This document shows, piece after piece, positions 4,166-23,002 of a stretch of DNA of 32,000 nucleotides. The position numbers and the translations under genes were made by a program. The notes under the pieces are model-generated. The model was given only the letters and a program-made list of their open reading frames with translations. It was not told where the DNA came from and ran no database searches. Each line of letters opens with the position of its first letter. Within the stretch, counting starts at the first letter, position 1. The DNA comes from Corynebacterium amycolatum. Its GTDB lineage: Bacteria; Actinomycetota; Actinomycetes; Mycobacteriales; Mycobacteriaceae. Location: the NCBI RefSeq assembly GCF_049243625.1, contig NZ_CP046975.1; one strand, given 5' to 3'.

Positions 4166-4909
4166 CTACTCCTCGTCCAGCACCATGCGATAACCGACCC
4201 CCACCTCAGTGCGCAAGTACTTGTTGTGAGCCTGCTGAGGCTCAATCTTGTGGCGCAGCTGGGAGATGTAAACGCGCAGGTAGTTGGTCTCTTTTTCGTA
4301 CTGGTCACCCCAGACGGCCTTGAGAAGCTCCAGTTTGGTCACCAGTTCGCCACGATGCTGCACCAGGTAGACCAGGATGTCCCACTCGCGCGGGGTCAGA
4401 TGCACGAGCTCGTCCGCCACGAGAACTTGCCGTTTGGCCAGGTCAACCATTAGATGACCATCTGCGGAGGTCACCTTCGGCACCTCTTCGACCACTACTT
4501 TGCTAGCACGCCGCATGGTTGAACGCAGCCGAGCCAACAACTCCCCCATCGAGAAAGGCTTGGTGACGTAGTCATCGGCCCCTTCATTGAGGGCGTTGAC
4601 TTTCCCCGCCTCGTCGTGACGTGCGGAGACAATCAGCACTGGAATATCGCTCCACCTGCGCAAAGAACGCAGAACTTCCAGGCCACTGACATCGGGCAAG
4701 CCCAGATCCAGGAGAACGGCGTCGGGCTTCCACTCGCTGTCCGCGGCTAACGCCCGCGTGGCCGTTTGCGCGACACGTGGCTCGTAACCGCGGGCTTTTA
4801 AACTGACAAGCACAGTGCGGGCCATGGCGACATCATCCTCGACGATGAGTATCTTTCGCCCGGGTTTGTTGCCAGCCTGACCAGCGGGTTGTCCTGAACT
4901 GAGATTCAT
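4166..4909 (-). CDS. kdpE: Two-component response regulator KdpE (OmpR/PhoB family)
   Basis: Receiver domain (KILIVEDD.., LLDLGLPD) plus C-terminal winged helix (LTPREWDILVYLVQHRGELVT, YLRVYISQLRHKIE, GVGYRM). Lies 6 nt downstream of kdpD. Confidence 0.9.
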   Translation of the reverse strand: MNLSSGQPAGQAGNKPGRKILIVEDDVAMARTVLVSLKARGYEPRVAQTATRALAADSEWKPDAVLLDLGLPDVSGLEVLRSLRRWSDIPVLIVSARHDEAGKVNALNEGADDYVTKPFSMGELLARLRSTMRRASKVVVEEVPKVTSADGHLMVDLAKRQVLVADELVHLTPREWDILVYLVQHRGELVTKLELLKAVWGDQYEKETNYLRVYISQLRHKIEPQQAHNKYLRTEVGVGYRMVLDEE

Positions 4910-4915
4910 GGAATC

Positions 4916-7519
4916 CTACTTTCTCTCGCCCATTGCACGCGGCAACGTCAGCACGAAGGTAGCACCGCCGCCGGGTGTCTGTTCGGCGCGGATGGCGCCT
5001 CCCATGGCGTCGGCAAAACGCGAGGCGGCGGCAAGTCCCAGACCAAGGCCCTGAGATTGTGCCGAGTAGTCGCCAAGGCGTTGGAACGGTTGAAAAATCT
5101 CCTCCAACTTATCCTCCGGGATGCCCTTACCGTGGTCAATGATCAAAATGTCTATGCATGCGCTCGCAGCGATAGCACCCAGCGAGCCCATAACCGGCAT
5201 GTCGGCGGGACCGCGCACACCGCGCTCGCTGGGCCGCGTACGAATGGTCAGGCTCGACTCCGGTGCGTACTGACGGCCGTTGATGACGATGTTGGAAACA
5301 ATGCGCTGGATCAGCCCAGGATCGCCTTCCACCATGCAGGCGTCATGGTCAATATCGCGGTCAATGTGACCTGCGGCTTCCGGCAGCTCCGCACATACCG
5401 CGTCCACAACATCGGAGACGCTAACCGGCACACTTTCCACCCGCTTGGTGCTGGAGTCGATGCGGCTGGCATCGAGTAGGTTGCCAATGACCACCTCTAG
5501 GCGGTCAGCGGAACTCTCGATTGTCTCCATGAGGATGAGACGCGTTTCGTCGTCAAGCTCGACGTCCTCCATGTTCATGCTGGAGATCGCAGCCTTGATG
5601 CTGGCCAGCGGTGTGCGCAGGTCATGTGAAACGGCGGTCAGCACCGCGCTGCCCACGCGGTTGCCCGCCTCGAGGGCAGCGGTGGCGCGGCGCATCGCGG
5701 CGATTTCCTCCATGTCCATGAGCGCCCGGATGCGGGAACCGTGAGCCGCAATCATGGCAGTCTCAGCGGCGGTGAGTTCACGGCCACTGAGCACAAAGCG
5801 CAGGTCATCGCCGGAGCTGACCTTAGTCATCGGCAGCTCTGTCGGCCACGGTTCGGACAAGCCGTGTTCGGCGGTGGTGACAATGGTCAACCACTTCTTG
5901 CGCTCTGAGGAGTAACGCTGCACGTCCACGCGCTCCATCGAGAACGTATCCGCCAAGCTGTGGACCAGGTTGGACATGTTGTCGCCATCGTGGACGACAC
6001 CGTGTGCCAACTCGGACATTACGACTGCCTGATGCAGACTCCTGTCCGCCATCTCGCGGCGGCGCTCGGAACGCTCCACCACCGTCGCCACAGCCGCCGC
6101 AATCACACCGAAGAGCAGGATTTGAGCCAAGCTGGCCGGCTCGGTGATAGTCAGGGTGTTCACCGGAGCGGTGAAGTACCAGTTTGCCAGAATTGAGGAG
6201 ACCACCACTGCCGCCAGCGCTGGCACCAACCCTGCCGCCATAGCGGCGAAGACTATCGGCATCAGATAGGTCAGCAGCAGTACGCCCAGGAACTCCGGGC
6301 CGGTGTCCAGCTGGTAGAGCAGCAACGTCAGTAGCACTGGCCCCACCAGTGCCAGCAGCCAACCGGTGATACGTCGCTCCTTGGAAAAGCGAGAGCGCAG
6401 TTTCTTGCGCCGCTTGGCTTTCTTCTCTGAGCTTGAGGAGATGATGTGCACATCGATGGGCCCAGCCTGGTCGATGATGCGCTGCGAGGTACTTAAGCCC
6501 ACGTAGCGCCGCAGTCCTCGCTCCGAGCCAATGACCAGCTGCGATGCATTGACCGTGCGGGAGAACTCCAGCAGAATTCCCGGCACATCATCGCCCACGA
6601 TGGTGCGCCACTGCCCACCCAGCGACTCGGTGAGATCCTGCAGCTTGCGCAGCCGACGCAGATACCCGCGGTCAAGGCCGTCGTCCTCGCCGGTAATGTG
6701 CACGACAATCATCTCGCGGCCGGCCACGCGACCGGTCATACGAGCACCGCGGCGAATCATGGACTCCGCGTTCTCATCATCGCGCACGGCCACCACGACG
6801 CGCTCACGCGTGGTCCAGTGGTCGTCGATCTCCTCGTCTTCGCGGTAGGCATCGAGCACCTCCTCGACCTTGTCAGCCAGCCACAAAAGTGCCAGCTCAC
6901 GCAGGGCGCTGAGGTTGCCCGGGCGGAAGTACTTGCGCAGCGCTAGTTCCGCTTGCTCCTTGCGGTAGATTTCGCCGCGAGACAGGCGGATGCGCAGGGC
7001 GTCCGGGCTCAAGTCGATGAGCTCAATCTCGTCCGCATCGCGGAGGACACGGTCGGGTACCGTCTCCATCTGGCGCACGCCGGTGACGGCCGCAACGACG
7101 TCGTTAAGCGATTCCAAGTGCTGGATGTTCATCGTCGAGATGACGTCGATGCCTGCGTCGAGAAGCTGGTAGACATCGTGCCAGCGCTTGCGTTGCTGAA
7201 CGAACTCGTTGTCCGGCTCATCGGTAACGACGGTGTGCGCGAGCTCATCGACGAGGGCGACCTCGGGACGCATCTCGATAATCGCATCAACATCCAGCTC
7301 ACGATAGGTGTTGCCGCGGTAGGACACCTTTCGACAATCCAACACTGGCAGGCCTTCGATGAGCTTCTTCGTCCGCTCGCGACCGTGGTGTTCCACCAGA
7401 CCAATGACTACCTCGTGCCCACGGGAGTACAGATCGTGCCCCTCGCTCAACATGGCGCACGTCTTACCCACGCCCGGGGCGAACCCCAGGTAGACCTTCA
7501 GTTTTCCTCGCTTGGCCAT
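4916..7519 (-). CDS. kdpD: Sensor histidine kinase KdpD
   Basis: 867 aa. N-terminal KdpD domain with P-loop-like GFAPGVGKT, a Usp-like segment, a central cluster of TM helices, H-box SHDLRTPLASI and a C-terminal ATPase domain (GLGLGLAA). Located in the kdp locus. Confidence 0.93.
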   Translation of the reverse strand: MAKRGKLKVYLGFAPGVGKTCAMLSEGHDLYSRGHEVVIGLVEHHGRERTKKLIEGLPVLDCRKVSYRGNTYRELDVDAIIEMRPEVALVDELAHTVVTDEPDNEFVQQRKRWHDVYQLLDAGIDVISTMNIQHLESLNDVVAAVTGVRQMETVPDRVLRDADEIELIDLSPDALRIRLSRGEIYRKEQAELALRKYFRPGNLSALRELALLWLADKVEEVLDAYREDEEIDDHWTTRERVVVAVRDDENAESMIRRGARMTGRVAGREMIVVHITGEDDGLDRGYLRRLRKLQDLTESLGGQWRTIVGDDVPGILLEFSRTVNASQLVIGSERGLRRYVGLSTSQRIIDQAGPIDVHIISSSSEKKAKRRKKLRSRFSKERRITGWLLALVGPVLLTLLLYQLDTGPEFLGVLLLTYLMPIVFAAMAAGLVPALAAVVVSSILANWYFTAPVNTLTITEPASLAQILLFGVIAAAVATVVERSERRREMADRSLHQAVVMSELAHGVVHDGDNMSNLVHSLADTFSMERVDVQRYSSERKKWLTIVTTAEHGLSEPWPTELPMTKVSSGDDLRFVLSGRELTAAETAMIAAHGSRIRALMDMEEIAAMRRATAALEAGNRVGSAVLTAVSHDLRTPLASIKAAISSMNMEDVELDDETRLILMETIESSADRLEVVIGNLLDASRIDSSTKRVESVPVSVSDVVDAVCAELPEAAGHIDRDIDHDACMVEGDPGLIQRIVSNIVINGRQYAPESSLTIRTRPSERGVRGPADMPVMGSLGAIAASACIDILIIDHGKGIPEDKLEEIFQPFQRLGDYSAQSQGLGLGLAAASRFADAMGGAIRAEQTPGGGATFVLTLPRAMGERK

Positions 7520-7565
7520 TTCTTACAGACCTTTACTTGCCATACCTTGCCCAATCGCAGGATGC

Positions 7566-8156
7566 TTACTGTCCGCCTGTCAGAGCGGCGTTCAGCTTTA
7601 CGACGTTGACCAGTCGCCCACCATCCTGCGAGCCCTGTTCCGTAATTGCTTTTTCACTATTTTCCGAGATCAACCGCTCAACCTCTGCCTGTGGCAGGTT
7701 GCGCTCCTTGGCCACGCGCGGTGCTTGCAGCTGTGCGTACTTCTCGGAGATATGCGGATCCAGACCGGAACCGGAGGCGGTGACTGCCTCCACCGGTACC
7801 TGAGCCGGGTCGATGCCCTCGCGGGCAGCGACATCGGTGCGGCGCTGTTCGATTTCAGCCTGGAACTCCTTGCTATACGGCGACACGTTCGATGCCGAAG
7901 ACGACATCGCGTCGTAGCCATTATCCCCCGCAGCAGACGGGCGCGGGTAGAAAAATCCCGGCTTTGTCACTTCTTGGGCAATGAGCTCCGAGCCCTGGGC
8001 CTTGCCTGCGGAGTCATACATCATCGAGCCATCAGCGTTATCGGACCAGATTCGCCCCGCTACCCAGATTGCGGCTGGGTACAGCAGGCCGATAACCACG
8101 GTGAGCAGCAAATATGCCTTGATTGTGGTGGATACCAACCGAAAGTTCTTGTTCAT
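7566..8156 (-). CDS. kdpC: Potassium-transporting ATPase subunit KdpC
   Basis: Start at ATG 8156 (MNKNFRLVSTTIKAYLLLTVVIGLLYP..) gives a typical ~196-aa KdpC with an N-terminal TM anchor and the conserved ASGSGLDPHIS motif. The ORF stays open upstream to 8237, so that start is an alternative. Confidence 0.88.
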   Translation of the reverse strand: MNKNFRLVSTTIKAYLLLTVVIGLLYPAAIWVAGRIWSDNADGSMMYDSAGKAQGSELIAQEVTKPGFFYPRPSAAGDNGYDAMSSSASNVSPYSKEFQAEIEQRRTDVAAREGIDPAQVPVEAVTASGSGLDPHISEKYAQLQAPRVAKERNLPQAEVERLISENSEKAITEQGSQDGGRLVNVVKLNAALTGGQ

Positions 8157-8237
8157 GTCCTTCTCGATTCTTTTCACATGTTGCGAGATGCCAAGTGCTG
8201 TGCGCTGGCTGCGCCGTTTGGCGCGAGGCCAAGGCAC

Positions 8238-10346
8238 TTACATCCCGAACACTCCGGAGAGCAGGAGGTCAATAATTTTGATGCCGACAAACGGTGCGAT
8301 GATGCCACCGACACCGAAGATGAGCAGGTTGCGGCTCAGCAGTGAGGCAGCCGACCCGGCGCGGTACTTCACGCCCTTGAGAGCCAGCGGAATCAAGGCG
8401 ACAATCACGAGCGCGTTGAAGATCACCGCAGACAGGATGGCGCTTTCCGGTGAGTGCAGGTTCATGATGTTGAGCTTGTCCAGGCCAGGCAGCGCCGTGA
8501 CGAACATGGCTGGAATGATGGCGAAGTACTTCGCCACGTCATTGGCAATGGAGAAGGTGGTCAGCGCACCGCGGGTAATCAGCAACTGCTTGCCGATTCC
8601 CACCACGTCAATGAGCTTGGTCGGGTCCGAATCCAGGTCCACCATATTGGCCGCTTCCTTCGCCGCCGACGTACCAGTGTTCATTGCCACGCCCACATCT
8701 GCCTGCGCCAATGCCGGTGCATCGTTGGTGCCGTCACCGGTCATGGCGACCAGGCGTCCCTTCGACTGCTCCTTGCGGATCAACTCTAGCTTCTGCTCCG
8801 GGGTGGCCTCAGCGAGCACATCGTCGACGCCGGCCTCCTTCGCAATCGCATGCGCCGTCACCGCATTGTCGCCCGTGATCATGACGGTACGAATGCCCAT
8901 TTCACGCAGCTGATCGAAACGCTCGCGCATGCCAGGCTTAACGACGTCCTTGAGATAAATAACACCCAGCACTCGTCCGGACTCACCGCTGGTTACTTCG
9001 TCGCCGCCAAATACCTCGGCGACCACCAGCGCGGTACCGCCCGCTTCCGAAATGCGCTGGACAATGCCATCGACCTCGGGCGGCACGGTGGCACCGATGC
9101 ACTTCATCAGCTTCACAATCTCCATTGCGGCACCCTTGACTACCTTGCGTTTCTTCTCGCCGCCGGTAGCGGGGAACTCGATACCACTCATACGAGTCTG
9201 AGCGGTAAAGGGAATGAAGGTCGCATTGGCATAGACGGATTCGTCGATGCGTTCATTCGATTCGGTTTCCGCGAGCTCGACAATGGAGCGGCCCTCGGGG
9301 GTTTCGTCGGCAAGCGAAGAAAGCTGGCAGGCGTGTACCAATTCAGCGTGCGTGGTGTCGCCGACCTCGGAGAACTCCGCAGCCTGACGGTTACCGAAGG
9401 TGATGGTGCCGGTCTTGTCTAGCAGCAGCGTGGCGACGTCACCAGCGGCCTCAACCGCACGGCCCGACATGGCCAACACGTTGTGCTGAACCAGGCGGTC
9501 CATACCGGCGATACCAATAGCGGACAGCAGCGCGCCGATAGTGGTCGGGATCAGGCAGATCAGCAGTGCGACCAGTACCAATGGGTCCTGCTCAGCGCCG
9601 TTGAAGACAGCCATTGGTGCCAAGGCGATGACGACCATGAGGAAGATCAGGGTCAACACGTGCAGCAGGGAACCAAGTGCCAGCTCGTTCGGAGTCTTCT
9701 TGCGCTGTGCGCCTTCGACCAGACCAATCATGCGATCCATGAAGCTCTCACCGGGCATGGTGGTGACCTCGATGGCGATGGCGTCGGAAAGCACGCGTGT
9801 ACCACCGGTGACCGCGCAGCGATCACCGCCGGCCTCGCGGATGACCGGCGCGGACTCACCGGTAATGGCGGACTCATCGACACTGGCAGCGCCGACGATC
9901 ACGTCGCCATCGGCGGGAATCGGCTCGCCGGCGGAGACGATGACGATGTCACCCGGAACCAGGTCCGTGGCCGCGACCTTGGTGGTCTGCGCGGCTGGGT
10001 TCTCCAGTGCTGCAGCGGCGTTGGCGCTGTTGTTGAGCTTGAAGGCATCAGAGGTGGTGCGCGAAGCGCGCAGCGATTCCGCCTGTGCCTTGCCGCGGCC
10101 CTCAGCGACGGCTTCCGCCAGCGTTGCAAAAAGTACCGTCAACCACAGCCACACCGTGATGGAAATACTGAACAGCGACGGGTGCGCAATGGCCAGGACC
10201 AGCGTAAATGCGGCACCGACTTCGACCAGGAACATCACCGGGGTGGCGATGAGCTGGCGCGGGTTCATCTTGCTCAGCGCCAGCGGCAGAGCCGCTTTCA
10301 GTGCGCTGGGAGAAAATGCGGAAGATGCGTTGGAATTCTTGCTCAT
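8238..10346 (-). CDS. kdpB: Potassium-transporting ATPase subunit KdpB (P-type ATPase)
   Basis: P-type motifs TGES, DKTGTIT (phosphorylation site) and [22 protein letters not shown] overlap with kdpA. Confidence 0.97.
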
Positions 10347-11995
10347 GACAGGGCCTCCGTCAGCGGACCTAGGACGAGGGTTGGTAGGAAGGTCAGGGCG
10401 CTGACGATGATTGCGATGGCAACGGTCAGGCCGACAAACTGCGGTCGGTGAGTTGGCAGGGTGCCAGCGGTCTCGGCGGCTGGTCGCTGCTTGGCGAAGT
10501 CACCAGCCAGACCCAGCACCATGGCAATTGGAAGAAAGCGACCAAACAGCATGGCGAAACCGAGGCTCATGTTGAACCACGGGGTATCGGCACCGAAGCC
10601 CGCGAATGCCGAACCATTGTTGTTGGACGCACTGGTGAAGGCGTAGATCAGGTCGGAGAAACCGTGCGGTCCGTCAGCGGACACGGAGTCCAGCGTCGAC
10701 GGCAGCATGGTGGAGATACCGACACCTGCCAGCACCAGCACTGGCATGACCAGGACGTAAAGGCAAACCTTGGTGATTTCCGAAACACCAATGCGCTTGC
10801 CCAGGTATTCCGGGGTACGGCCGACCATCAGGCCGGCGATGAATACGGTCAGGATGGCGATGATGAGCATGCCGTAGAGACCGGAGCCCACACCACCAGG
10901 GCTGATCTCGCCCAGCAGCATGTTCAGCATGAGCATGCCGCCTGCCAGTGGTGAGTAGCTGGAGTGGAAGCTGTCCACCGCGCCTGTCGACGTCATGGTG
11001 GTGGTCACCGCAAAGAAGGAACTCGGCAGCACGCCAAAGCGCATTTCCTTGCCCTCCATGCCGCCACCTTGGAAGGTCTGCAGCGCAGTCTCGCTGGACA
11101 TAACGACAGCCAGAGAGATGAAGTAGAGCACCGCCATGGTGGACAGAATTGCCCAGCCCTGGCGCTTGTCACCGATGATGACACCGAATGCCCTGGTCAA
11201 CGAGACCGGAATCAACAGGATAAGGAAGATTTCCAGCATGTTGGTCCACGCATTCGGGTTTTCAAATGGATGCGCGGAGTTGGCGTTGAAGTAGCCACCG
11301 CCGTTGGTGCCCAATTCCTTGATGACCTCCTGCGATGCCACGGCACCGCTCGGGATAGTCTGGCTGCCGCCGGTGACAGTCTGGATAGTCTGTGGGGCCG
11401 AGAAATTCTGGATGGCACCCTGCGAAATCAGCAGAATTGCACCAATAGCGGCGATGGGCAGCAGCACTCGCAGGACGGTACGAGTCAGATCTACCCAGAA
11501 GTTGCCGATGTTGCCGTCACCGTGACGGTTGGCCAGGCCTCGGACCAGCGCCACCGCCACTGCAATACCGACTGCGGCGGAGACGAAGTTCTGAACTGCC
11601 AGGCCAGCCATCTGGGTTAGCACTGTCATGGCTTCTTCACCGGAGTAGGACTGCCAGTTGGTGTTGGTGGTAAACGACACCGCGGTGTTCCACGCCTGGT
11701 CCGGAGAAACTGGGCCCTTGCCGTGGTTGAGCGGTAGCCACTGCTGCACTCGCTGCAGCAGGTAGACGAAGATGACGCTGACAGCGGAGAAGCTCAACAC
11801 ACTGGCGGTGTACTTTGTCCAGTGCTGGTTGGCCTCTGGGCGCACACCGATGGCGCGGTAGAAACCGCGCTCAACACCCAAGTGTTTATCAGTGGTGAAT
11901 ACCCGCCCCATGTAATTGCCGAGCGGGATGTAAAGGATGGCCAGTGCGGCCATCACGATGATTACCGGGACAAATCCCATAATGACGTTGCTCAC
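10343..11995 (-). CDS. kdpA: Potassium-transporting ATPase subunit KdpA
   Basis: 550-aa polytopic protein with KdpA-typical regions ([28 protein letters not shown]). GTG start overlaps the kdpF stop (GTGA). Confidence 0.96.
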
Positions 11996-13508: not shown

Positions 13509-14993
13509 TTATCGCCCTCGGCGGACGGAAATCGTCCAACCAGCCTCGCCGGTCTGCTCGAAGTTGGTGACCTCGTGGCCATCCTTCGCAGCCCAGCGCG
13601 GAATCGCATCCGTGGCCTGGGTGCAGTCGAATGGAATCACCAGCTCCTCGCCGACCTCAATCTTGTTGATTGCATCCTTGGCCTCGATCAACGGGAATGG
13701 GCACACCGCGCCGACGGTGTCGAGCTCGTATCGCCCATCGCCCAGCGGCTTTAGCTTGCCGTCTTCCTGCTTGACGACGCTCCGGTCGAGCAACGCCACC
13801 GGAGCGACAGCAAAGGCACCCGCCAGCGGGGAGGCCTCGGCGCCAGCGGCACCGACACCGTCGCTGCTCGGCAGGGACACAGGAGAAGTAGCAGCCGAAG
13901 CGACCGGAGCCGCTGCCGATACCGCCGTGTCGTTGGTGGTGGAAGAGGTGCTCGGGACGTCGTTAAGCGAAGGTGCGGACGGCTTCAGCCAAAGCTTGGC
14001 GGCGATAGCGACACCTGCGGCGATGGACGCCAGCGCAAGCCAACCCTGGTAGCTGAACAGCGAGGTCTGAACCATGCCGTTGCCGACGGTGCAGCCGCCG
14101 GCCCACGCAGCGCCAACACCCATGAAGATGCCGCCGACGACGGAGCGAGCGCCCTGCGTAGCGTCCGGGACGCGGAGACGGAATTCGCCGGATGCCTTGG
14201 CGGCGATGAAGGAACCGACGAGGATGCCGAGGACGAGGAGGACGCCCCAGTCGAAACGCTCGGTGTCACCAGTGACAACGTAGTTAGCGAGGTTGGAGGA
14301 CGGAGTGGTGATGCCGAGGCCATCGTTGCGGCCGGTGGCGGCGGACAGCGGCCATGCAATCACGCCCAGTACACCGACGATGGCGGCGGTGGCGTACACG
14401 TGCCAGGGCTTCTCAGCCAGGATGTGCGCGAGACCGGACTTACGCGGTGCCAGAGTTACCGGGCGCGGGCCGGAGAATTCTTCGCGCAGGAAGCGGACGG
14501 CGAAGTATGCCGTGACGGCGCTCAGCGCGATGACCAGTGGCCAAATGCTAATGCCGAGAGAGGCATGAATGCTGGTCAGGCCGACGGTGCGGTCCTTCAG
14601 GGAATTCTGCAGGCCATTGAGGAAGCCAGTCTTCATAGCAGCAGCGGATAGGGCGTAAAAGACCAGTGCGATCCAAGAGCCGATCAGGCCCTCACCCGAG
14701 CGGTACCAGGTACCCGAGGCACAGCCACCGGCCAGGACGATACCCAGCCCGAAGATAACACCACCGACGATAACGGCCACCGGTGCCAGTTCGTTGTATT
14801 CGGGAGTAATCACGCCGGCGCTGGTCAGTGCGGCCAGGCCGATGGCGTGGAAGGAAATAACAATCAGTAGCGCGACGAAGCCGCGCCAGCTGCGCTGAGT
14901 AAAGATATCGCGCAGGAAGCCGGTGACGCAGAAGCGTCCTCGCTGCATAACAAAGCCGAGCACGGCGCCCAGCGCTAGTCCTGAGATGAGCAT
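13509..14993 (-). CDS. YeeE/YedE family sulfur-compound (thiosulfate, TsuA-like) transporter fused to a C-terminal TusA/YeeD (SirA-like) sulfurtransferase domain
   Basis: Conserved Cys motifs FVMQRGRFCVTG, AGGCASGTWYR and AGGCTVGNGM. Ala/Ser/Thr/Pro-rich linker, then a TusA fold signature (GAVCPFPLIEAKDAI..). ATG 14993 (AGGAG upstream; aligns with the N-terminus of E. coli YeeE as I recall it) is preferred. The ORF is open to ATG 15032 as an alternative start. Confidence 0.85.
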   Translation of the reverse strand: MLISGLALGAVLGFVMQRGRFCVTGFLRDIFTQRSWRGFVALLIVISFHAIGLAALTSAGVITPEYNELAPVAVIVGGVIFGLGIVLAGGCASGTWYRSGEGLIGSWIALVFYALSAAAMKTGFLNGLQNSLKDRTVGLTSIHASLGISIWPLVIALSAVTAYFAVRFLREEFSGPRPVTLAPRKSGLAHILAEKPWHVYATAAIVGVLGVIAWPLSAATGRNDGLGITTPSSNLANYVVTGDTERFDWGVLLVLGILVGSFIAAKASGEFRLRVPDATQGARSVVGGIFMGVGAAWAGGCTVGNGMVQTSLFSYQGWLALASIAAGVAIAAKLWLKPSAPSLNDVPSTSSTTNDTAVSAAAPVASAATSPVSLPSSDGVGAAGAEASPLAGAFAVAPVALLDRSVVKQEDGKLKPLGDGRYELDTVGAVCPFPLIEAKDAINKIEVGEELVIPFDCTQATDAIPRWAAKDGHEVTNFEQTGEAGWTISVRRGR

Positions 14994-15197
14994 GAAAGTA
15001 GTTCTCCTAAGTTTTGTGGACAAGCCCGCCATTTAAACCTTTATGAACAGACCTGTCTATTCGTGGGTTAGAAACTACTTCAATCACCGAAGAAAGTCCA
15101 ACTTAACGGCGTTTTCGCAGAGCAGAGCACTTATCAATAGACAGACCGAACCGTATAGTTGCTGGTGATAAACGCAAGTTGTGGCAAGCTAAACACT

Positions 15198-16208
15198 ATG
15201 AGCGCACAGAATTCAGCCCTGGCTGGGCACCAGCGGCTCCTTGCGATGCGCTCGATACTCGACCTGCCCTTTGCACACGCTTTCACCCTTGCCCCACAAC
15301 TGGTCATTGACATCTCCGGCGTCGCCCGTCTCAGCGAGCTCAACGCCAAAAATGTCGCAATAGTCGACAGCTTGCGTTCACTCGCCCACACCAACGTGCA
15401 GGACTTTTATGCCATCGATGACGCGGCAGAAGCTCTAGGTACCGCCTTGCGAATGGCGATTTCCTCCCGACAGCTACTCTGGTTAAGCTCACTGTCCCAC
15501 AGCGACGTGGAGAGGGTACGAAACATCCTCGGCGGCGACATCGTTCATGTGGTGGGCGAGGCACTGGCCGTCGATAAGCTCGATGACGATGTCCTGGAGC
15601 TTCCCGATGCCATGAAGCAACGCGGAGAACCACTGGTGCCCATCGCCATTTCGCCGACCGAGCTGGTGCAGACCTGGGCCCACGGTACGCGCGAGCAGCA
15701 AAAACTGCTGACGTACCTGATGGAGGGTACGAATACGCTGGTCATGCAGCACAAGAACCTGCATGCACTACGCAAAGTCGGAACCAAACTCATAGAGCGC
15801 AACCCCGTGTGGCGCCTGCTCTATAACCCGAAAGTGCTCGCGTATCTGGTGGTGATGGTTTACTCTTCGCTCCGCGCGCTACCTGTGGTTTTTGTCCCCG
15901 GATTCCACGGCAATGTCTGGGTGCTGTGGAGCATCGACATCATTACCGCTATCCCCTACACCTGGGGAATTGTCGAGATGATCACCGGCCGCTCATTCGG
16001 CCGAAGAATGCTGGGGCTCCTGATCACTCTAGTGACTTTCGTCTCGCCCTACGTCTACTTCTGGGCCAACGGGCGCGATTATCCGGTGTGGGTCACCATC
16101 TTTGTCATCGCGCTGATTGTCGCGGCGTGCGCCGTTGAATACGTTCGCTGGCTGCGCGACCGAGTCATCTATGAAATCCTGCGAAAACCACCCACCAGCG
16201 GCGGCTAG
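15198..16208 (+). CDS. Hypothetical membrane protein (soluble N-terminal ~210 aa, then 3-4 TM helices)
   Basis: ORF with GC-rich third codon positions like its neighbours. ATG 15198 preferred over TTG 15159. C-terminal hydrophobic segments (VLAYLVVMVYSSL.., VWVLWSIDIITAIPYTWGIV, MLGLLITLVTFVSPYVYFW, VWVTIFVIALIVAACAV). I recognise no family. Confidence 0.6.
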   Translation: MSAQNSALAGHQRLLAMRSILDLPFAHAFTLAPQLVIDISGVARLSELNAKNVAIVDSLRSLAHTNVQDFYAIDDAAEALGTALRMAISSRQLLWLSSLSHSDVERVRNILGGDIVHVVGEALAVDKLDDDVLELPDAMKQRGEPLVPIAISPTELVQTWAHGTREQQKLLTYLMEGTNTLVMQHKNLHALRKVGTKLIERNPVWRLLYNPKVLAYLVVMVYSSLRALPVVFVPGFHGNVWVLWSIDIITAIPYTWGIVEMITGRSFGRRMLGLLITLVTFVSPYVYFWANGRDYPVWVTIFVIALIVAACAVEYVRWLRDRVIYEILRKPPTSGG

Positions 16209-17032
16209 CGACCGCTGAGCGAGCGCCGCACTCCCCCAATAATCAGCCAGGCACCGGCGGCAACGTTCACAGCCACAAGCCCGTGAACTGCTGTACTGCT
16301 TAACGACGCTGCCGTCGTCTCACCTGCGATGAGAGTACCGGTCGAGATAATCCAGATGAACGTTGCGGCAATGTTGGCAATCCTGCCGCGTTCCACGCGG
16401 AATGGATGCGTGTAGTGCAGCGGCACCAGCGTCATTGCGCTGAAGATAAAGATTGCAGCGATGCACACCGCCATGGGCGCGTTCCATACCCACAGCAAAA
16501 CCGCCACGATGTTCCACGCGGCGGGGAAACCAACGAAGTAGTAGTCGCCGGACTTGGCGGCTTCGTTGGCATAGCAGAACATCGATGACACCAGCACCAG
16601 GATTATCAGGGAAATTGCCAATGGACGTGGCCCCAGCGGCAGGTACATGACCATGAAAGCTGCGGGAATGGCGGTCCAGGTGAGATAGTCGACGATGTTG
16701 TCCACCACTGCGCCGTTAAACCACGGGACGACTTCCTTGATGTGATGTTTACGCGCCATATTGCCGTCGACACCATCGACGACAAGGGCAATGCCCAACC
16801 AGAGCCACATCCAATGTGGGCGACTCTCCAGCAGTGCGACCACAGCCAGCGTCGCCCACACCAAACCTGTCAGTGTGAAGGCATGCACCGCCCAAGCGAT
16901 GACATGCTGACGCCGGGTGAAGCGGGTGAAGGTCGCAGCGGTGATGGCAGCATCGGTGTTGGCAGTCGAGACAGCAGCGGAATTATCGGCAACAGCGGAA
17001 CTGGCATTGTCGGAGCGGATAGTAGCGTTCAC
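16205..17032 (-). CDS. pcs: CDP-alcohol phosphatidyltransferase, phosphatidylcholine synthase-like (Pcs)
   Basis: Motif DGNMAR-x12-G-AVV-D-NIV-D, i.e. DGxxAR(x12)GxxxDxxxD. The 12-residue spacing is the Pcs variant of the usual x8 motif. Polytopic, ~275 aa. Further regions resemble rhizobial Pcs as I recall it (YYFVGFPAAWN, LVPLHYTHPFRV). GTG start with AAAGGA RBS. Confidence 0.7.
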   Translation of the reverse strand: MNATIRSDNASSAVADNSAAVSTANTDAAITAATFTRFTRRQHVIAWAVHAFTLTGLVWATLAVVALLESRPHWMWLWLGIALVVDGVDGNMARKHHIKEVVPWFNGAVVDNIVDYLTWTAIPAAFMVMYLPLGPRPLAISLIILVLVSSMFCYANEAAKSGDYYFVGFPAAWNIVAVLLWVWNAPMAVCIAAIFIFSAMTLVPLHYTHPFRVERGRIANIAATFIWIISTGTLIAGETTAASLSSTAVHGLVAVNVAAGAWLIIGGVRRSLSGR

Positions 17033-17049
17033 GGCAGATGTCCTTTAGA

Positions 17050-17094
17050 GAACAAAATGCGCACAACTGCAAACCTTTATCGCAGTTGTGCGCA
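17050..17094 (-). terminator. Rho-independent terminator after betB, immediately upstream of the pcs RBS
   Basis: 13-bp perfect stem TGCGCACAACTGC (17058-17070) / GCAGTTGTGCGCA (17082-17094) with an 11-nt loop. Followed on the - strand by TTTTGTT. Confidence 0.75.
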
Positions 17095-17174
17095 GAGTCG
17101 ATTTTTTCAATCGGTGAGTATAACGGCCGATGGGTCGTTTTCCCGTATTTTTGCTCGGGCTTGTGCCGAGTTAT

Positions 17175-18743
17175 TTAACGACGATCCTCGAACCAACCGG
17201 TAACAGCCGGCGCTGTGTTCTCGTAGACCAGCTTGGCTTCGGTGTACTCTTCCAGGCCGGTCGGGCCCAGCTCGCGGCCAATACCGGACTGGCCGAAGCC
17301 ACCCCATTCGGCCTGTGGCAGGTAGGGACCAAAGTCGTTAATCCAGACGGTGCCGTGGCGCAGCCCGCGGGAGACGCGCTCAGACACCTCACGGTTGGAT
17401 GTCCACACCGCACCGGCCAGGCCGTATTCGGTGTCGTTGCCAATCTCGATGGCCTCATCAACCGTGGTGAAGGTCTCCACCGTCACCACCGGGCCAAAGG
17501 CTTCGTCGTGAACGCAGTCCATCTCGCGAGTGACCTGGTCAATCACGGTTGGGAGGTAGAAGTAGCCGTCGGCAAGCGAGGCGGAACCGTCAGCGGTGGC
17601 GCCGGTGGCAATCTCGCCGCCCACGCGCACGCGAGCGCCCTGCTCACGCGCCCGATCAACGTATGCCGCGACCTTATCCAGATGCTGCTTCGAAATCAGC
17701 GCACCGGTCTCGGCCTTCTCGTCGAGCGGACCACCGAGCTGGATGTGTCCGGCGCGCTCGACCAAATCGTCGACAAACTTCTCGGCGATGGACTCCTCCA
17801 CAATCAAGCGAGCGCCCGCCGAGCAGACCTGACCGGAGTGCAGGAACGCAGCATTGAGGGCATTGTCCAAAGCAGCTTCGTAGTCAGCGTCGGCGAAGAT
17901 GATGTTCGGGTTCTTGCCGCCGAGCTCAAGTGCAACCTTCTTCACGGACTTGGCTGCTTCACCAGCAATAATCTTGCCAGTGACAAGACCGCCAGTGAAG
18001 GAGACCATGTCCACCTTCGGATGCGAGGACAACGGTGCGCCCGCTTCGGCGCCAGCGCCGGTAATGAGGTTGGCAACACCTGCCGGAACACCCAGATCAT
18101 CGATGACGTGCATGAGCAGAATTGCTGTGTGCGGAGTCAGCTCCGCCGGCTTGAGCACAAAGGTATTGCCCGTGGCCAGGCACGGTGCGACCTTCCATGC
18201 GGTCTGCAGCAGTGGGTAGTTCCACGGCGTGATCAGGCCACAGACACCGACAGGTTCACGCACAATACGCGCGACGACGGACGGGTCATCCGCATCCACG
18301 AGACGACCGGCATCATTGCCCGCGAGCTTACCGAAGTACTCGAAGCAGGCGATGATGTCATCCATATCGGCTGCCGCCTCAGGCAGGCGCTTGCCGGTAT
18401 CCATAGCCTCTGCCCAGGCAAATTCATCCTTACGCTGCCTGATGGCAGCACCGATGTCGAGTACCAACCTGCTGCGCTCAGCTGTGCTCCAGGATGCCCA
18501 GGAACCTTCTCCGGTACGTCGGAAAGCAGCGTCGGCGGCGGCGATGGCGCGCTCGGTGTCGGTCGCGTCTGCTTCCGCAACTTCGGCGATGAAAGAGCCA
18601 TCGGCCGGGCACTCGATAGTGCGAGTGTTGCCAGCGGCTGCAGCGGACCAGGCGCCGTTGATGAACAGCGTGGCCGCGCCTTCGTGGGATTTGGCGGTCT
18701 CGGGTGCGAGGGCCTTATCAGTAGTGGAAGGCTCAAAGGTCAT
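17175..18743 (-). CDS. betB: Betaine-aldehyde dehydrogenase (NAD-dependent aldehyde dehydrogenase family)
   Basis: ALDH motifs VALELGGKNP and FLHSGQVCSAGARL (catalytic Cys), plus PWNYPLL. Its start abuts the stop of the upstream BCCT gene (TAAATG). Sits in a betT/betA context. Confidence 0.85.
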   Translation of the reverse strand: MTFEPSTTDKALAPETAKSHEGAATLFINGAWSAAAAGNTRTIECPADGSFIAEVAEADATDTERAIAAADAAFRRTGEGSWASWSTAERSRLVLDIGAAIRQRKDEFAWAEAMDTGKRLPEAAADMDDIIACFEYFGKLAGNDAGRLVDADDPSVVARIVREPVGVCGLITPWNYPLLQTAWKVAPCLATGNTFVLKPAELTPHTAILLMHVIDDLGVPAGVANLITGAGAEAGAPLSSHPKVDMVSFTGGLVTGKIIAGEAAKSVKKVALELGGKNPNIIFADADYEAALDNALNAAFLHSGQVCSAGARLIVEESIAEKFVDDLVERAGHIQLGGPLDEKAETGALISKQHLDKVAAYVDRAREQGARVRVGGEIATGATADGSASLADGYFYLPTVIDQVTREMDCVHDEAFGPVVTVETFTTVDEAIEIGNDTEYGLAGAVWTSNREVSERVSRGLRHGTVWINDFGPYLPQAEWGGFGQSGIGRELGPTGLEEYTEAKLVYENTAPAVTGWFEDRR

Positions 18744-20924
18744 TTAGGAATCCTCCTTGGCGTAGTCGTCAGACCATTCGCGGACAGGTTCGGCATTATC
18801 GGACAGATCTGAGGTGCCCGGGAGATCAGCCTGCATATGCAGGAACTCCAGGTGCCGTTCGTAGAGATCGAGGACATCGGAAATCAGCTGCTCTTGGGTG
18901 TAGCCGTAAACGTCGTAGCCAAGAGAGCCGGTCAGTGTGAATACCTCGAGGCGGTAGTAGTAAATGTCGGCATCACTGTCCAGGTGTACCAGGCCGGCAA
19001 AGGACGGCGTCAAGTGTTCAACCGGATAGACCTGGTATCGGAAGCTCATCTCCTCGCCGAATCCGACCTGCAGGTCAATCTGGTCGATGCCGACTTCTTC
19101 TGCTGGTTCACGGTGCAGCGTCACTTCACCGCCACGTTCCCTGATAGCATCTGCCACCTGTTCAAGTGCGGGCTGCACCACTCGGTCGAGGTAGCGCATG
19201 ACTGGCTTCTTGCCCGGGAAGGACATGGAGCGGGCAAGTCGATTGCGCCAGTCGCCCTGTCGGCCATCTACGGCGCGGCCCGACATCGCCCCGTGGAGGG
19301 CTCGACGTGTCGAATCCTGTTGCAACAGCTCCAGTCGCAGCGACTTAAACAGGCCATACATCACCAGATAGATGACAAAGGCAAACGGCAGACCCATCAC
19401 AATCGTTGCCGACTGCAGCGTCGGAATACCACCGACATAGAGCATGGAGATGGTCAGCACACCGACCACGACAGCCCAGAAAATACGGGTCCACTTCTTA
19501 CCGTCCTGCTGTGTGTCGGTGATCTTCGAAGTGAAGTTACTCATCACCAGTGCCGCCGAGTCCGCCGAGGTGATGTAGAGCAACAGGCCAATCAGAGATG
19601 CGACTGCAGCCACCATCATCGGCGCCGGGTACTGCTCCAGCAGCAGGTAGAAGGCACGCTCCGGGTAATCCAGTGCAGTCTGGCCAAACTCCGAATCGCC
19701 ATTGATGACCAGGTCCAGCGCCGAGTTACCGAATACCGACACCCACATCAGGACGAAGAGGAATGGAATGGTCAGCGTGCCGACGACAAACTGGCGCAGG
19801 CTACGGCCACGGGAAATACGGGCCAGGAACAAACCGACGAACGGTGCCCAGGCCACCCACCAAGCCCAGAAGAACAGGGTCCAGGAGTTCAACCATTCCT
19901 GTGCACCGGAGAACGCGTAAGTATCCATAGTCATGGACGGGAACTTCGAGACGTACTCACCGACGTTCATCACCAGTGCGTCAAACAGGAACGCAGTGCG
20001 GCCGGTAATCAGGATGTAGAGCATCAAGCAGATGGCCAGGCCAACGTTGAGCTCCGAGAGACGACGAATTCCCTTATCAACACCGGAAACTGCGGAGGCG
20101 ATAGCCACCGATACAGCCACGACGATCAGAGCGATCTGCCAGGACGTACTCTCATCCACCCCGAACAGCACGCGCAGGCCGTAATTCAGCTGGACGACGC
20201 CGATACCGAGCGAGGTTGCGACACCGAAAATGGTACCCAGCATCGCCGCGATTTCGACTGCTTCACCAGCGGGGCCATGGATGCGCTTGCCGATAATCGG
20301 ATAGAGCGCCGAACGAATGGTCAGCGGCATATTGAGGCGATAGGCGAAGTAGCCGAATGCCATACCCATCAGGGCGTAGAGTGCCCAACCGGTCACGCCA
20401 TAGTGGAAAAGCGTGAACACCACTGCCTGACGTGCAGCTTCGATGGTCTCTGCGTCTCCAGTCGGCGGGCCATAGTACTGTGCCACCGGCTCTGCTACCG
20501 AGAAGAAGAGCAGGTCAATGCCGATACCCGCGGCAAAGAGCATGGAAGCCCAGGAAAACAGACCAAACTGAGGCTTGGCGTGATCGGGGCCGAGCTTAAT
20601 CTGCCCTGTTCGCGAGATAGCGACGTAGAGCATGAAGAGCACTGCCACCGTCGCGGTCACAATATAGAACCAGCCGAAGTTCTTCGATACCCAGGCGACA
20701 ATGCCCGCTAGGGTGCCCGCTGCATTGTCCGGAGCAAAAATAGCCCACAGGGCAATGGCGAGAATACCAACGCCTGAAATAATAAATACAGGCCAGTTGA
20801 CCTCAGGCTCAGAGGTCGCACTCGCTTGCGCTTGTTGTGGAGGGACCGACTGCGATCGCTGCATTTCTTGCGACGATTCAGATTTTTCCTCCGTTACCTT
20901 CTCAGTTGGCGGAGTATCAGACAT
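18744..20924 (-). CDS. betT: BCCT family transporter, BetT-like (choline/betaine) with a long cytoplasmic C-terminal extension
   Basis: BCCT signature WTLFFWAWWVAWAPFVGLFLARISRGR. 12-TM-like core followed by a ~180-aa hydrophilic tail, as in choline transporter BetT. Substrate is inferred from context. Confidence 0.85.
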   Translation of the reverse strand: MSDTPPTEKVTEEKSESSQEMQRSQSVPPQQAQASATSEPEVNWPVFIISGVGILAIALWAIFAPDNAAGTLAGIVAWVSKNFGWFYIVTATVAVLFMLYVAISRTGQIKLGPDHAKPQFGLFSWASMLFAAGIGIDLLFFSVAEPVAQYYGPPTGDAETIEAARQAVVFTLFHYGVTGWALYALMGMAFGYFAYRLNMPLTIRSALYPIIGKRIHGPAGEAVEIAAMLGTIFGVATSLGIGVVQLNYGLRVLFGVDESTSWQIALIVVAVSVAIASAVSGVDKGIRRLSELNVGLAICLMLYILITGRTAFLFDALVMNVGEYVSKFPSMTMDTYAFSGAQEWLNSWTLFFWAWWVAWAPFVGLFLARISRGRSLRQFVVGTLTIPFLFVLMWVSVFGNSALDLVINGDSEFGQTALDYPERAFYLLLEQYPAPMMVAAVASLIGLLLYITSADSAALVMSNFTSKITDTQQDGKKWTRIFWAVVVGVLTISMLYVGGIPTLQSATIVMGLPFAFVIYLVMYGLFKSLRLELLQQDSTRRALHGAMSGRAVDGRQGDWRNRLARSMSFPGKKPVMRYLDRVVQPALEQVADAIRERGGEVTLHREPAEEVGIDQIDLQVGFGEEMSFRYQVYPVEHLTPSFAGLVHLDSDADIYYYRLEVFTLTGSLGYDVYGYTQEQLISDVLDLYERHLEFLHMQADLPGTSDLSDNAEPVREWSDDYAKEDS

Positions 20925-21262
20925 AGGAAAATCCTTCAGATTCGGGAACTAACCCAGCATACCTAGTTTGAATAATCCCTCAAGTCTGAGAATCGATTCA
21001 GAAGAATTCTCCAATTCCAACATCAACACCTTCACCTGCATATTTACCCAGTTTTCAAGGCGTCTAAAATCATCCGAACTGGAATTGAATACCAATTGTG
21101 TGCCATTCTATATAGGTGAAGGGGATTTGAGATACGTCTCCGGCCACTTATTCCAATATCAATATATAGGGCCCGCCTTTAAATATTACTTGAGGCTTAT
21201 CGCACTCCTTGAAACCCATTCCGATATACATCGGCAAACAACCTACGGAGGTACACCAGAAC
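20925..21262. promoter_or_regulatory. AT-rich divergent betT / betA control region with palindromes
   Basis: 338-bp non-coding interval, visibly far more AT-rich than the flanks. Inverted repeat AATTG-N5-CAATT at 21083-21097. Perfect 10-bp palindrome GAATCGATTC near 20991. GGAGG RBS at 21247-21251 ahead of betA. Confidence 0.6.
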
Positions 21263-23002
21263 ATGGGAGCTTTCCCGGCTGTCTTCAACTTCGGTAAAAA
21301 GAATGGCAACACCACAGTCGAACACCGCGACGTCGTCATCGTTGGCGCGGGCTCTGCCGGCTCTGTGCTGGCCAACCGGCTGTCCGCAGACCACACTCAG
21401 CACGTGCTCGTACTCGAGGCCGGCCGTATGGACTCCCTCTGGGACCTCTACATTCACATGCCTTCGGCATTCTCCTTCCCAATCGGCAACAAGTACTACG
21501 ACTGGAAGTACGAATCCGAGCCGGAACCGGAGATGAACGGTCGCCGCATCTACCATGCCCGCGGCAAGGTCGTCGGCGGCTCCTCCTCCATCAACGGCCA
21601 GATCTACCAGCGCGGTAACCCGATGGACTACGACAAGTGGGGCGACACCAAGGGGCTGGAGAACTGGGGTTGGAACCATGTTCTGCCGTACTTCAAGCGC
21701 ATGGAAAATGCGCTGGGCTCCGACAAGGACGACCCACGCCGCGGCCACGACGGCCCGCTGCGTATGAAGCGCGGTCCGGCCGATTCTCCGCTGTTCAAGG
21801 CCTTCTTTAAGTCGGTCCAGCAGGCTGGTTACAACTACACTCCGGACGTCAACGGCTACCGCCAGGAGGGCTTCGGTCCCTTCGACGCAAACATCGACAA
21901 GGGCCGCCGTCTCTCCGCAGCTCGTGCATACCTGCACCCGGCCCTGCAGCGTCCGAATCTGGAACTCCGCACCCGCGCAGAAGCCACCCGCGTCCTCTTC
22001 GAGGGCACCAAGGCCGTCGGCATTGAGTACACCTGGAAGGGTCGCACTCACCAGGTGCGAGCAGACAAGGTCATCCTCTGTGGTGGCGCTTTCAACTCTC
22101 CGCAGCTGCTCGAGGTCTCCGGCGTTGGCGATGAGAAGATTCTGAATGCCGCCGGAGTGAACGTCGTCAAGCACCTGCCTGGTGTCGGCGAGAACCTGCA
22201 GGACCACCTGGAGGTCTACATTCAGTACAACGCCACCCAGCCTGTGTCTTCACAGCCGTACCTGGAGAAGTGGCGTTGGCCGTTCATCGGCCTGTGGTGG
22301 CTGCTCACCCACAAGGGTCCAGTGGCAACGTCGCACTTCGAAGGCGGCGGTTTCGCACGCTCCAACGACAACGAGCCCTACCCGAACCTGATGTTCCACT
22401 TCCTGCCGCTGGCCATGCGTTACGACGGCACGAAGATCGATAGCCCGCACGGTTTCCAGTTCCACGTTGGTCCGATGTACTCGGACGCCCGTGGCCATGT
22501 CCACATCACGTCCTCTGACATCAAGGTCAAGCCGTCGATTCTGTTCAACTACCTGTCCACTGATCAGGACCGCCGTGAATGGGTCGAGGCTGTCAAGGTC
22601 TCCCGTAAGCTGCTGGACACCCCGGCAATGAAGGAGTACACCGACGGCGAGATTTCCCCGGGTGCAGATGTGCAGACCGACGAGGAAATTCTCGAGTGGG
22701 TCCGCAAGGATGCCGAGACCGCACTGCACCCATCCTGCACCTGCAAGATGGGTCCGGCCTCCGACGAGATGGCCGTGGTCGATCCGGAAACCATGCAGGT
22801 TCACGGCACCGAGGGCCTCTACGTGGTTGACGCTTCGGTCATGCCGGGCATCACCAACGGCAATATCTACGCACCGACCATGATGATTGCCGAAAAGGCC
22901 GCTGACCTCATCGCCGGCAAGACTCCGCTGGCACCGCAGGACATTCCGTTCTACCGCGCCGGCCAGGGTATGCCGCTGGATCCGCCGGAGAACAATAAGT
23001 AG
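21263..23002 (+). CDS. betA: Choline dehydrogenase (GMC oxidoreductase)
   Basis: N-terminal FAD fold [22 protein letters not shown] signatures ([18 protein letters not shown]). C-terminal active-site region [20 protein letters not shown] 21263 with a GGAGG RBS is preferred over the ORF-maximal start 21209. Confidence 0.9.

Follow-up and report, generated by a model that had tools for sequence, protein, structure and literature searches.

Can a corynebacterium of skin and mucosa make the “eukaryote-like” lipid phosphatidylcholine (PC) from choline taken up from its surroundings, and where would such a capacity have come from? The question is raised by a 32,000-nt stretch of DNA from Corynebacterium amycolatum (NCBI RefSeq assembly GCF_049243625.1, contig NZ_CP046975.1), hereafter the window, which carries a gene that we call pcs. 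A preliminary description of the window had read its product as a phosphatidylcholine synthase (Pcs) attached to genes of choline uptake and oxidation. We find the product to be a member of the bacterial Pcs family, an assignment that is well supported by its sequence at the family level. With a probability of roughly three in four, in our judgement, it is an enzyme that makes PC from CDP-diacylglycerol and external choline, belongs to an old lineage of Actinomycetota and is likely expressed from a transcription unit of its own. The gene and its catalytic motif lie as follows.

16205–17032, minus strand: pcs, GTG start, 275 amino acids (aa), Pcs-family CDP-alcohol phosphatidyltransferase with 8 predicted transmembrane (TM) helices
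16688–16777, minus strand: codons of the catalytic motif, residues 86–115, D86-x2-D89-G90-x2-A93-R94-x12-G107-x3-D111-x3-D115

Motif, profiles and fold of the pcs product

Residues 86–115 read DGVDGNMAR-KHHIKEVVPWFN-G-AVV-D-NIV-D, that is, D-x2-D-G-x2-A-R-x12-G-x3-D-x3-D, and the motif DGNMAR-(12)-G-xxx-D-xxx-D that had been claimed for this open reading frame (ORF) is thus present. By regular expression, 147 of 151 Pcs-family sequences have the 12-residue spacer, among them the Pcs of Sinorhizobium meliloti, Pseudomonas aeruginosa and Legionella adelaidensis, as against 8 residues in Escherichia coli PgsA. The view of this spacing as a Pcs trait agrees with a review of Agrobacterium lipids, in which the modified x12 motif is the Pcs signature and is assigned to the TM2–TM3 loop of a protein with 8 TM helices (PMC3972451). 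Phosphatidylserine synthase (Pss) differs in its shorter R-to-G spacing, x5-S/T-x2, or 8 residues (PMC3972451). As cited in the same review, the motif was found by mutagenesis to be essential in S. meliloti Pcs (Solis-Oviedo et al. 2012, in PMC3972451). Every motif residue of the query is invariant with respect to the three reference Pcs, as are H50, K160, an FxGFP block, W173, N174, P210 and R212, among others. Identity to these enzymes in the multiple alignment is 42% for P. aeruginosa, 32% for S. meliloti and 26% for Legionella, and the tblastn local match to P. aeruginosa Pcs reaches 47%.

The N-terminal tail of the protein is variable, disordered and rich in Ala, Ser and Thr, with a length of about 29–35 residues (29 in the AlphaFold model). 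The GTG start is supported by a conserved CCGTG, by an AAGGA ribosome-binding site and by in-frame indels in the N-terminal tail across six Corynebacterium loci. The gene is under purifying selection, with ratios of nonsynonymous to synonymous substitution (dN/dS) of 0.09–0.25 against five other Corynebacterium loci.

The comparison of profile hidden Markov models gave a consistent picture. In NCBIfam, the top five matches of the query are all Pcs equivalog models:

Pseudomonas-type Pcs (NF045887): 203 bits (203.3), E = 4e-60
Agrobacterium Pcs: 143 bits
Bradyrhizobium Pcs: 125 bits
Legionella Pcs: 124 bits
Borrelia Pcs: 110 bits

The best model outside Pcs scored 27 bits, with archaetidylinositol-phosphate, PssA and archaetidylserine models at or below this value and the PssA models at 19–26 bits. 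The Pcs equivalog models are lineage-specific, and none exists for Actinomycetota. For calibration, the Pcs of S. meliloti, P. aeruginosa and L. adelaidensis were taken from replicons of chromosome size that PLSDB files as plasmids, and were scored like the query. S. meliloti Pcs passes its own model only. Against the Pseudomonas-type model it reaches 177 bits and Legionella Pcs 119 bits, and P. aeruginosa Pcs obtains 182 bits with the Agrobacterium model; E. coli PgsA matches no Pcs model. Since verified subtypes cross-score at 119–182 bits, the query is as near to one verified subtype as these are to each other.

The AlphaFold model of the pcs product (predicted local distance difference test, pLDDT, 80.9) has 8 long helices, in keeping with the polytopic topology that had been taken to fit Pcs, and places the motif residues where helix 72–95 ends and within helix 108–130. 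The PDB yielded no significant sequence match, whether the query was the single protein or a profile. By Foldseek, the best PDB matches are CDP-alcohol phosphotransferases, led by the phosphatidylserine synthase (PSS) of Methanocaldococcus jannaschii (7POW; probability 1.0, TM-score 0.64) and followed by phosphatidylinositol phosphate (PIP) synthases. This type II PSS (7POW, 7B1K) shares the 8-helix CDP-alcohol phosphotransferase fold and is the closest solved structure, but its sequence similarity is marginal (profile E about 0.5) and its substrate is serine. Since the PDB contains no Pcs structure, the match to a PSS reflects the shared superfamily only. Motif, profiles, tree (see below) and fold together support the claim that the protein is of Pcs type rather than a PgsA, PssA or PIP synthase.

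Among characterized enzymes, P. aeruginosa Pcs is the closest: it gives the best profile match, has the identical x12 motif, is the sister in the tree and is of similar length apart from the tail. It differs in that the query falls under the 300-bit cutoff of its model and has the extra disordered N-terminal tail, and its gene is flanked by an amino-acid ABC binding protein gene and an NTF2-family gene. The activity of the P. aeruginosa enzyme is verified, and that of the C. amycolatum protein is predicted. The enzymes of P. aeruginosa and S. meliloti both yield PC when expressed in E. coli supplied with choline. The founding member, S. meliloti Pcs, shares the D-x2-DG-x2-AR-x12-G-x3-D-x3-D motif and 8 predicted helices, but is only 32–37% identical and branches deeper.

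The bioinformatic identification as Pcs is not new, since public databases already carry the name. UniRef calls the exact protein “Phosphatidylcholine synthase, Corynebacterium amycolatum” (the NCBI record is MULTISPECIES Corynebacterium), and several older NCBI records of 90–94% identical relatives are also named “phosphatidylcholine synthase”. The current NCBI (PGAP) name is the generic “CDP-alcohol phosphatidyltransferase family protein” because the score lies under the equivalog cutoffs. What would be novel is the partner gene described below, and a first demonstration of PC synthesis in Corynebacterium.

Phylogeny and distribution

We built a neighbour-joining (NJ) tree of 151 sequences over 234 columns, with 200 bootstraps and rooted on a single E. 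coli PgsA. The query falls inside the spread of verified Pcs in this tree, which we consider adequate and not definitive because its deep nodes are unsupported and it has one outgroup sequence. The Corynebacterium sequences form a clade (bootstrap 1.0), and all 28 sequences labelled Actinomycetota, together with one metagenomic representative, form a wider clade (0.97). This Actinomycetota clade has P. aeruginosa Pcs as its sister (0.70), the Pcs of S. meliloti and Legionella diverge at deeper nodes, and E. coli PgsA is the most distant sequence of the set.

A scan of one genome per GTDB species returned 466 loci encoding relatives, and the best 80 of these were analysed. All 80 belong to Actinomycetota, which, along with the database names already given, is at odds with the earlier picture of Pcs as essentially proteobacterial. 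Corynebacterium is represented among them by six species-level genomes (the amycolatum group, C. lactis and C. uropygiale), and a separate protein search added a homologue in C. poyangense, making about seven Corynebacterium species in all, with a patchy distribution. Many of the other loci are from Actinomyces, Schaalia, Pauljensenia, Arcanobacterium, Tessaracoccus and Rothia, with further ones in Gleimia, Boudabousia, Bowdeniella and Dermabacteraceae. The genera that carry the actinobacterial pcs are overwhelmingly animal-associated. Judged from these sequences, pcs belongs to an old Pcs lineage specific to Actinomycetota and found mainly in animal-associated genera. The patchy spread within Corynebacterium fits either loss or transfer within the phylum.

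Some public labels in this material look wrong. ‘Corynebacterium vitaeruminis 1285_CVIT’ (L004) has a C. amycolatum-like locus with a Pcs 94–95% identical, and ‘Sanguibacter keddieii 250_SKED’ and ‘Xylanimonas cellulosilytica 352_XCEL’ (L026, L042) carry Actinomyces- or Schaalia-like pcs loci. A 3.7-Mb S. meliloti replicon bearing pcs (L001, CP090106.1) is filed in PLSDB as plasmid pSymB.

A conserved partner gene

The evolutionarily stable companion of pcs is a convergent gene for an uncharacterized membrane protein. It emerged as the one family almost always present when ORFs lying up to 5 kb from pcs were clustered across the 80 loci.

15198–16208, plus strand: partner gene, 336-aa uncharacterized membrane protein, ATG start, convergent with pcs, the stop codons overlapping by 4 nt

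The program-made ORF list begins this frame at a TTG at 15159. By tblastn, a homologue is present in 69 of the 80 Actinomycetota pcs loci, nearly always directly downstream and convergent; in four loci it lies upstream on the pcs strand, in two of these about 7 kb away. Six of the 11 loci without it have too little flanking sequence, leaving only five partner-less loci with adequate flanks. No homologue was found in the proteobacterial pcs loci that were fetched (S. meliloti, P. aeruginosa and Legionella).

The partner protein gave no match in Pfam or NCBIfam, including a member-by-member Pfam scan. A profile search of 5.8 billion proteins retrieved 143 proteins, all of this kind; the family is put at about 150–180 members, and every named entry is a ‘hypothetical protein’. 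Its AlphaFold model (pLDDT 86.7; predicted template modelling score, pTM, 0.81) combines an N-terminal alpha/beta domain of about 200 residues with four long TM helices, and Foldseek against the PDB gave nothing below E = 0.1. Sub-threshold signals are a holin-like resemblance of the TM part and a weak local match of the soluble domain to GNAT and acyl-homoserine lactone (AHL) synthase-like proteins. Conservation is concentrated in the membrane part, in YSSLRALPV, IDxxTAIPYTWG, SPYVYFW and RWLRDR, and the invariant residues include D247, E314 and several Arg, Tyr and Trp. The dN/dS of the partner gene is 0.16–0.25. The positive-inside rule predicts a cytoplasmic location for the soluble domain and the C-terminus, on the same side as the Pcs active site. 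As a speculation from the sequence, the membrane motifs, rich in aromatic residues, would suit the binding of a quaternary amine or of the PC headgroup.

Pcs and its partner might then form a two-gene module, in which the partner would supply or gate choline or otherwise control PC synthesis, and which in C. amycolatum would also be under a leader attenuator; we offer this tentatively, and think it rather unlikely to hold. If it did, the partner would be a new family dedicated to host-choline-dependent membrane remodelling in actinomycetes of skin, mouth and urogenital tract. In either case the gene is a concrete and cheap genetic target in the search for a new factor in bacterial PC metabolism.

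The bet neighbourhood

Upstream of pcs on the same strand are a dehydrogenase gene and a transporter gene, with a choline dehydrogenase gene opposite.

17175–18743, minus strand: betB-like betaine-aldehyde dehydrogenase (PF00171, 532 bits; top match TIGR01804, 546 bits, below its 668.6 cutoff)
18744–20924, minus strand: betT, BCCT-family choline transporter (NF007399, 952 bits, cutoff 695)
21209–23002, plus strand: betA choline dehydrogenase, divergent from betT (TIGR01810, 799 bits, cutoff 732)

Counting its stop codon, the betT ORF runs to 18744 and betB starts at 18743, with zero intergenic bases; this abutment suggests translational coupling of transporter and dehydrogenase. Two further ORFs, 17130–18812 (plus strand) and 21197–22207 (minus strand), were rejected as genes, since they mirror betB and betA on the opposite strand and match no family. 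As in the enterobacterial-type betTIBA locus, homologues of BetT, BetB and BetA are clustered and betA is divergent from betT-betB. Unlike that locus, no betI-like regulator is seen among the ORFs annotated around the C. amycolatum cluster, and the adjacency of pcs, absent from the classical arrangement, is confined to one Corynebacterium sublineage.

The preliminary description had pcs attached to the bet genes. In the window this is literally so, with pcs adjoining betT-betB and opposite betA, but as a general association it did not stand. When BetT, BetB and BetA of the window were searched by tblastn against the 80 loci, with 8-kb flanks where available, the bet genes adjoined pcs in only four (L004, L005, L007 and L008), all of the C. 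amycolatum/C. lactis group. The same search found no such adjacency in C. uropygiale or in 74 other Actinomycetota loci. Nor did a search of the non-Corynebacterium loci find a choline transporter or any other choline gene conserved beside pcs; the conserved neighbours there are PurL, SCP_3, DUF4921 and methyltransferases.

The spacer upstream of pcs

The 142-nt spacer between betB and pcs holds several elements, which follow each other on the minus strand in the order TACGGG, TTATACTC (containing TATACT), a small hairpin, a 15-bp hairpin with UUUUGUUCUC, AAGGAC and GTG.

17117–17122, minus strand: −10-like box TATACT within the invariant TTATACTC, putative pcs promoter proposed from conservation
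17048–17094, minus strand: terminator-like hairpin (17094–17058) with a 15-bp stem and 7-nt loop, then UUUUGUUCUC, from scan and folding
17040–17045, minus strand: Shine-Dalgarno-like AAGGAC, 7 nt 5′ of the GTG, read by hand, conserved in amycolatum-group loci

The element TTATACTC is invariant in all six Corynebacterium loci, including those of SK46 and of C. lactis, the latter without the hairpin, and a conserved TACGGG lies about 20 nt upstream of the TATACT box. A sigma-70 consensus scan of the gap on the minus strand found no promoter, the TATACT box included, and the putative promoter is thus argued from conservation. The 15-bp hairpin has a folding energy of −34.8 kcal/mol (z = −5.6 against shuffled sequences); it is retained in L006 (strain SK46) and L007, where stem bases have changed and still pair, and is absent in C. 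lactis. An Rfam search of the spacer found no known RNA family. The upstream block of pcs is found at 7851–7945 in L006 and at about 7920–8010 in L007.

Strain SK46 of C. amycolatum is informative here. A 7.8-kb insertion (L006, 265–7850), starting right after the betB stop codon, parts betB from pcs, and the whole upstream block stays with pcs. The insertion carries a gene resembling the major facilitator superfamily (MFS) and an 890-aa stand-alone gene of non-ribosomal peptide synthetase (NRPS)-like adenylation, carrier and thioesterase type, then about 500 bp of AT-rich sequence; no obvious terminal repeats were found around it. The conserved box, the hairpin and the SK46 arrangement point to a pcs gene that probably has its own promoter and terminator-like leader and is insulated from betTB transcription. 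The hairpin may act as a leader attenuator, or may be the terminator of betB only.

Proposed function and lipid evidence

If the reading proposed at the outset holds, an 8-TM Pcs with its motif site facing the cytoplasm would produce PC and cytidine monophosphate (CMP) by moving the phosphatidyl group from CDP-diacylglycerol onto free choline. The choline would come from outside, presumably via the adjacent BetT, and BetA and BetB would oxidize the same pool to glycine betaine. The gene itself would most likely be its own transcription unit, with the −10 box and the terminator-like leader hairpin, and not the distal gene of betTB. Rhizobia differ in that choline uptake is by ChoXWV (PMC3972451), while the adjacent transporter in C. 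amycolatum is BetT. A choline pool shared through BetT is a reasonable proposal for C. amycolatum and is not general to the actinobacterial Pcs lineage.

In a lipidomics study of oral microbes, Actinomyces viscosus contained PC 34:1 at 9.69 relative units, against 10.14 in Candida albicans (PMC11052126, Table 5), more than 10 times the level of most bacteria with a PC 34:1 value in the same table (PMC11052126). The A. viscosus genome (L060) encodes a 52%-identical Pcs homologue, and its PC is an independent lipid hint. The same table gives a high PC 30:0 for Nanosynbacter lyticus (9.10 relative units; PMC11052126, Table 5). A survey of phosphorylcholine pathways lists phosphorylcholine epitopes of unknown structure in A. 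viscosus, A. gerencseriae and Corynebacterium jeikeium (PMC10434233), and reports no Pcs homologue in an actinobacterium (PMC10434233). Our literature searches, covering Corynebacterium, Actinomyces, Arcanobacterium, Actinomycetaceae and hosts of Saccharibacteria, found no experimental study of an actinobacterial Pcs, and titles and abstracts yielded no report of PC as a C. amycolatum lipid.

PC is not known to have been reported as a Corynebacterium lipid. Several actinomycete genera, on the other hand, have PC as a recognized diagnostic lipid (Lechevalier phospholipid type PIII), so the premise that it is alien to Actinobacteria was too strong. Nanosynbacter lyticus is an epibiont grown on an Actinomyces or Schaalia host, and its PC might come from the Pcs pathway of such a host. 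In Brucella, Legionella, Agrobacterium and rhizobia, PC is linked to host interaction, and a host-choline-dependent membrane modification, as the preliminary description had proposed, is a plausible role for the pcs product as predicted from its sequence.

Were the enzyme active, PC would be made from host choline by C. amycolatum, which is both a frequent commensal of skin and an opportunistic pathogen, and by many oral and urogenital actinomycetes (Actinomyces, Schaalia, Arcanobacterium, Rothia), and the standard picture of the corynebacterial membrane would need revising. Such activity would explain PC signals in the lipidomics of these bacteria and possibly their reactivity with phosphorylcholine antibodies. 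In C. amycolatum, imported choline would be contested between osmoprotectant and membrane-lipid synthesis.

Weighing the alternatives

Several points weigh against a choline-using Pcs with its own transcription unit. The query lies under the curated cutoff of all five Pcs equivalog models (203.3 against 300; cutoffs 300–440 bits), a failure that we attribute to the lack of a model for its own lineage, and it barely reaches Pfam PF01066 (23.4 bits against a cutoff of 22). The deep NJ branches are unsupported and hang on a single outgroup. The literature searched yielded no enzymatic or lipid data for this protein or any Corynebacterium homologue. Devriesea agamarum has an annotated pcs, yet its PC was not detected by thin-layer chromatography (TLC) (PMC6090031), and the PC of A. 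viscosus could be carry-over from the growth medium. The promoter and attenuator, finally, are proposed from conservation and folding.

The low Pfam score, in which only the generic PF01066 is seen, together with the generic current NCBI name and a PSS as the closest solved fold, might suggest an ordinary PgsA, type II PssA, PIP synthase or eukaryote-like cardiolipin synthase with no more than a likeness to Pcs. We give this hardly any credence: non-Pcs models stop at 27 bits against 110–203 for the five Pcs models, the spacer has 12 residues and not 8, E. coli PgsA is the most distant sequence of the set, and the PSS match is one of superfamily. Better founded, and still improbable in our view, is a Pcs-family enzyme acting on another quaternary or tertiary amino alcohol, not or not only on choline, with specificity perhaps aided by the partner. 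The Actinomycetota clade is distinct and below every curated Pcs cutoff, it is almost always paired with the uncharacterized membrane protein that proteobacterial pcs loci are without, most actinomycete loci have no choline transporter nearby, and the Devriesea result would be accounted for. Against this, the query shares all its catalytic-motif residues and many other positions, unchanged, with Pcs verified to use choline; its clade has P. aeruginosa Pcs as sister and falls within the range of verified enzymes; a choline transporter adjoins pcs in C. amycolatum; and PC is abundant in A. viscosus cells (PMC11052126). We retain choline as the likely substrate.

As to origin, the preliminary description had suggested horizontal acquisition; the version weighed here is that Corynebacterium recently took the gene from host-associated proteobacteria, either along with the bet genes or into their locus. 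The patchy occurrence in Corynebacterium (some seven species: amycolatum group, C. lactis, C. uropygiale and C. poyangense) and a nearest non-actinobacterial relative of Pseudomonas type speak for it, but the weight of evidence lies elsewhere. The gene is nested in an Actinomycetota clade (0.97) that spans several orders; its product shares 42% of residues with Pseudomonas Pcs in the alignment and 47% by tblastn; the guanine-plus-cytosine (GC) content of pcs, 0.586, and its GC at third codon positions (GC3), 0.70, are native, surrounding genes having GC3 of 0.63–0.79; the partner gene co-occurs phylum-wide; and the bet linkage is restricted to one sublineage. With a phylum-level clade, so low an identity to the nearest proteobacterial type and native base composition, a recent proteobacterial import is not supported and we consider it very improbable. 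This view is largely refuted, and any transfer of pcs would have been ancient or within the phylum. A closer contest concerns transcription, where pcs might be the third gene of a betT-betB-pcs operon, expressed by read-through of a hairpin acting as a leaky internal terminator. Three genes on one strand with a gap of 142 nt, a gene order conserved in four species-level loci (L004, L005, L007 and L008) and the negative sigma-70 scan of the gap favour such an operon, and we regard it as a serious if somewhat unlikely possibility. Co-transcription is made doubtful by the strong hairpin with its U-run ahead of pcs, by TTATACTC on the 5′ side of the hairpin, invariant and kept in hairpin-less C. 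lactis, and by SK46, which keeps the entire pcs upstream block though 7.8 kb of inserted DNA separates it from betB. Membership of pcs in the betT-betB operon is thus not borne out, with the hairpin and the TATACT box standing between the genes and the linkage confined to 4 of 80 loci, and an independent transcription unit remains the preferred reading.

Other features of the window

A complete kdp potassium-uptake cluster (kdpA, kdpB, kdpC, kdpD and kdpE; 4166–11995, minus strand) lies about 4 kb from the choline and betaine genes, and the two sets make up a local concentration of osmoadaptation functions. Between them, at 13509–15032 on the minus strand, a single 507-aa ORF combines a YeeE/TsuA-type thiosulfate (sulphur) transporter domain (residues 31–343) with a TusA/YeeD-like sulfurtransferase (436–505). 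TsuA/YeeE and TsuB/YeeD are usually encoded by separate genes; here the two halves match the separate NCBIfam models for them, and the fusion is kept in related Corynebacterium loci.

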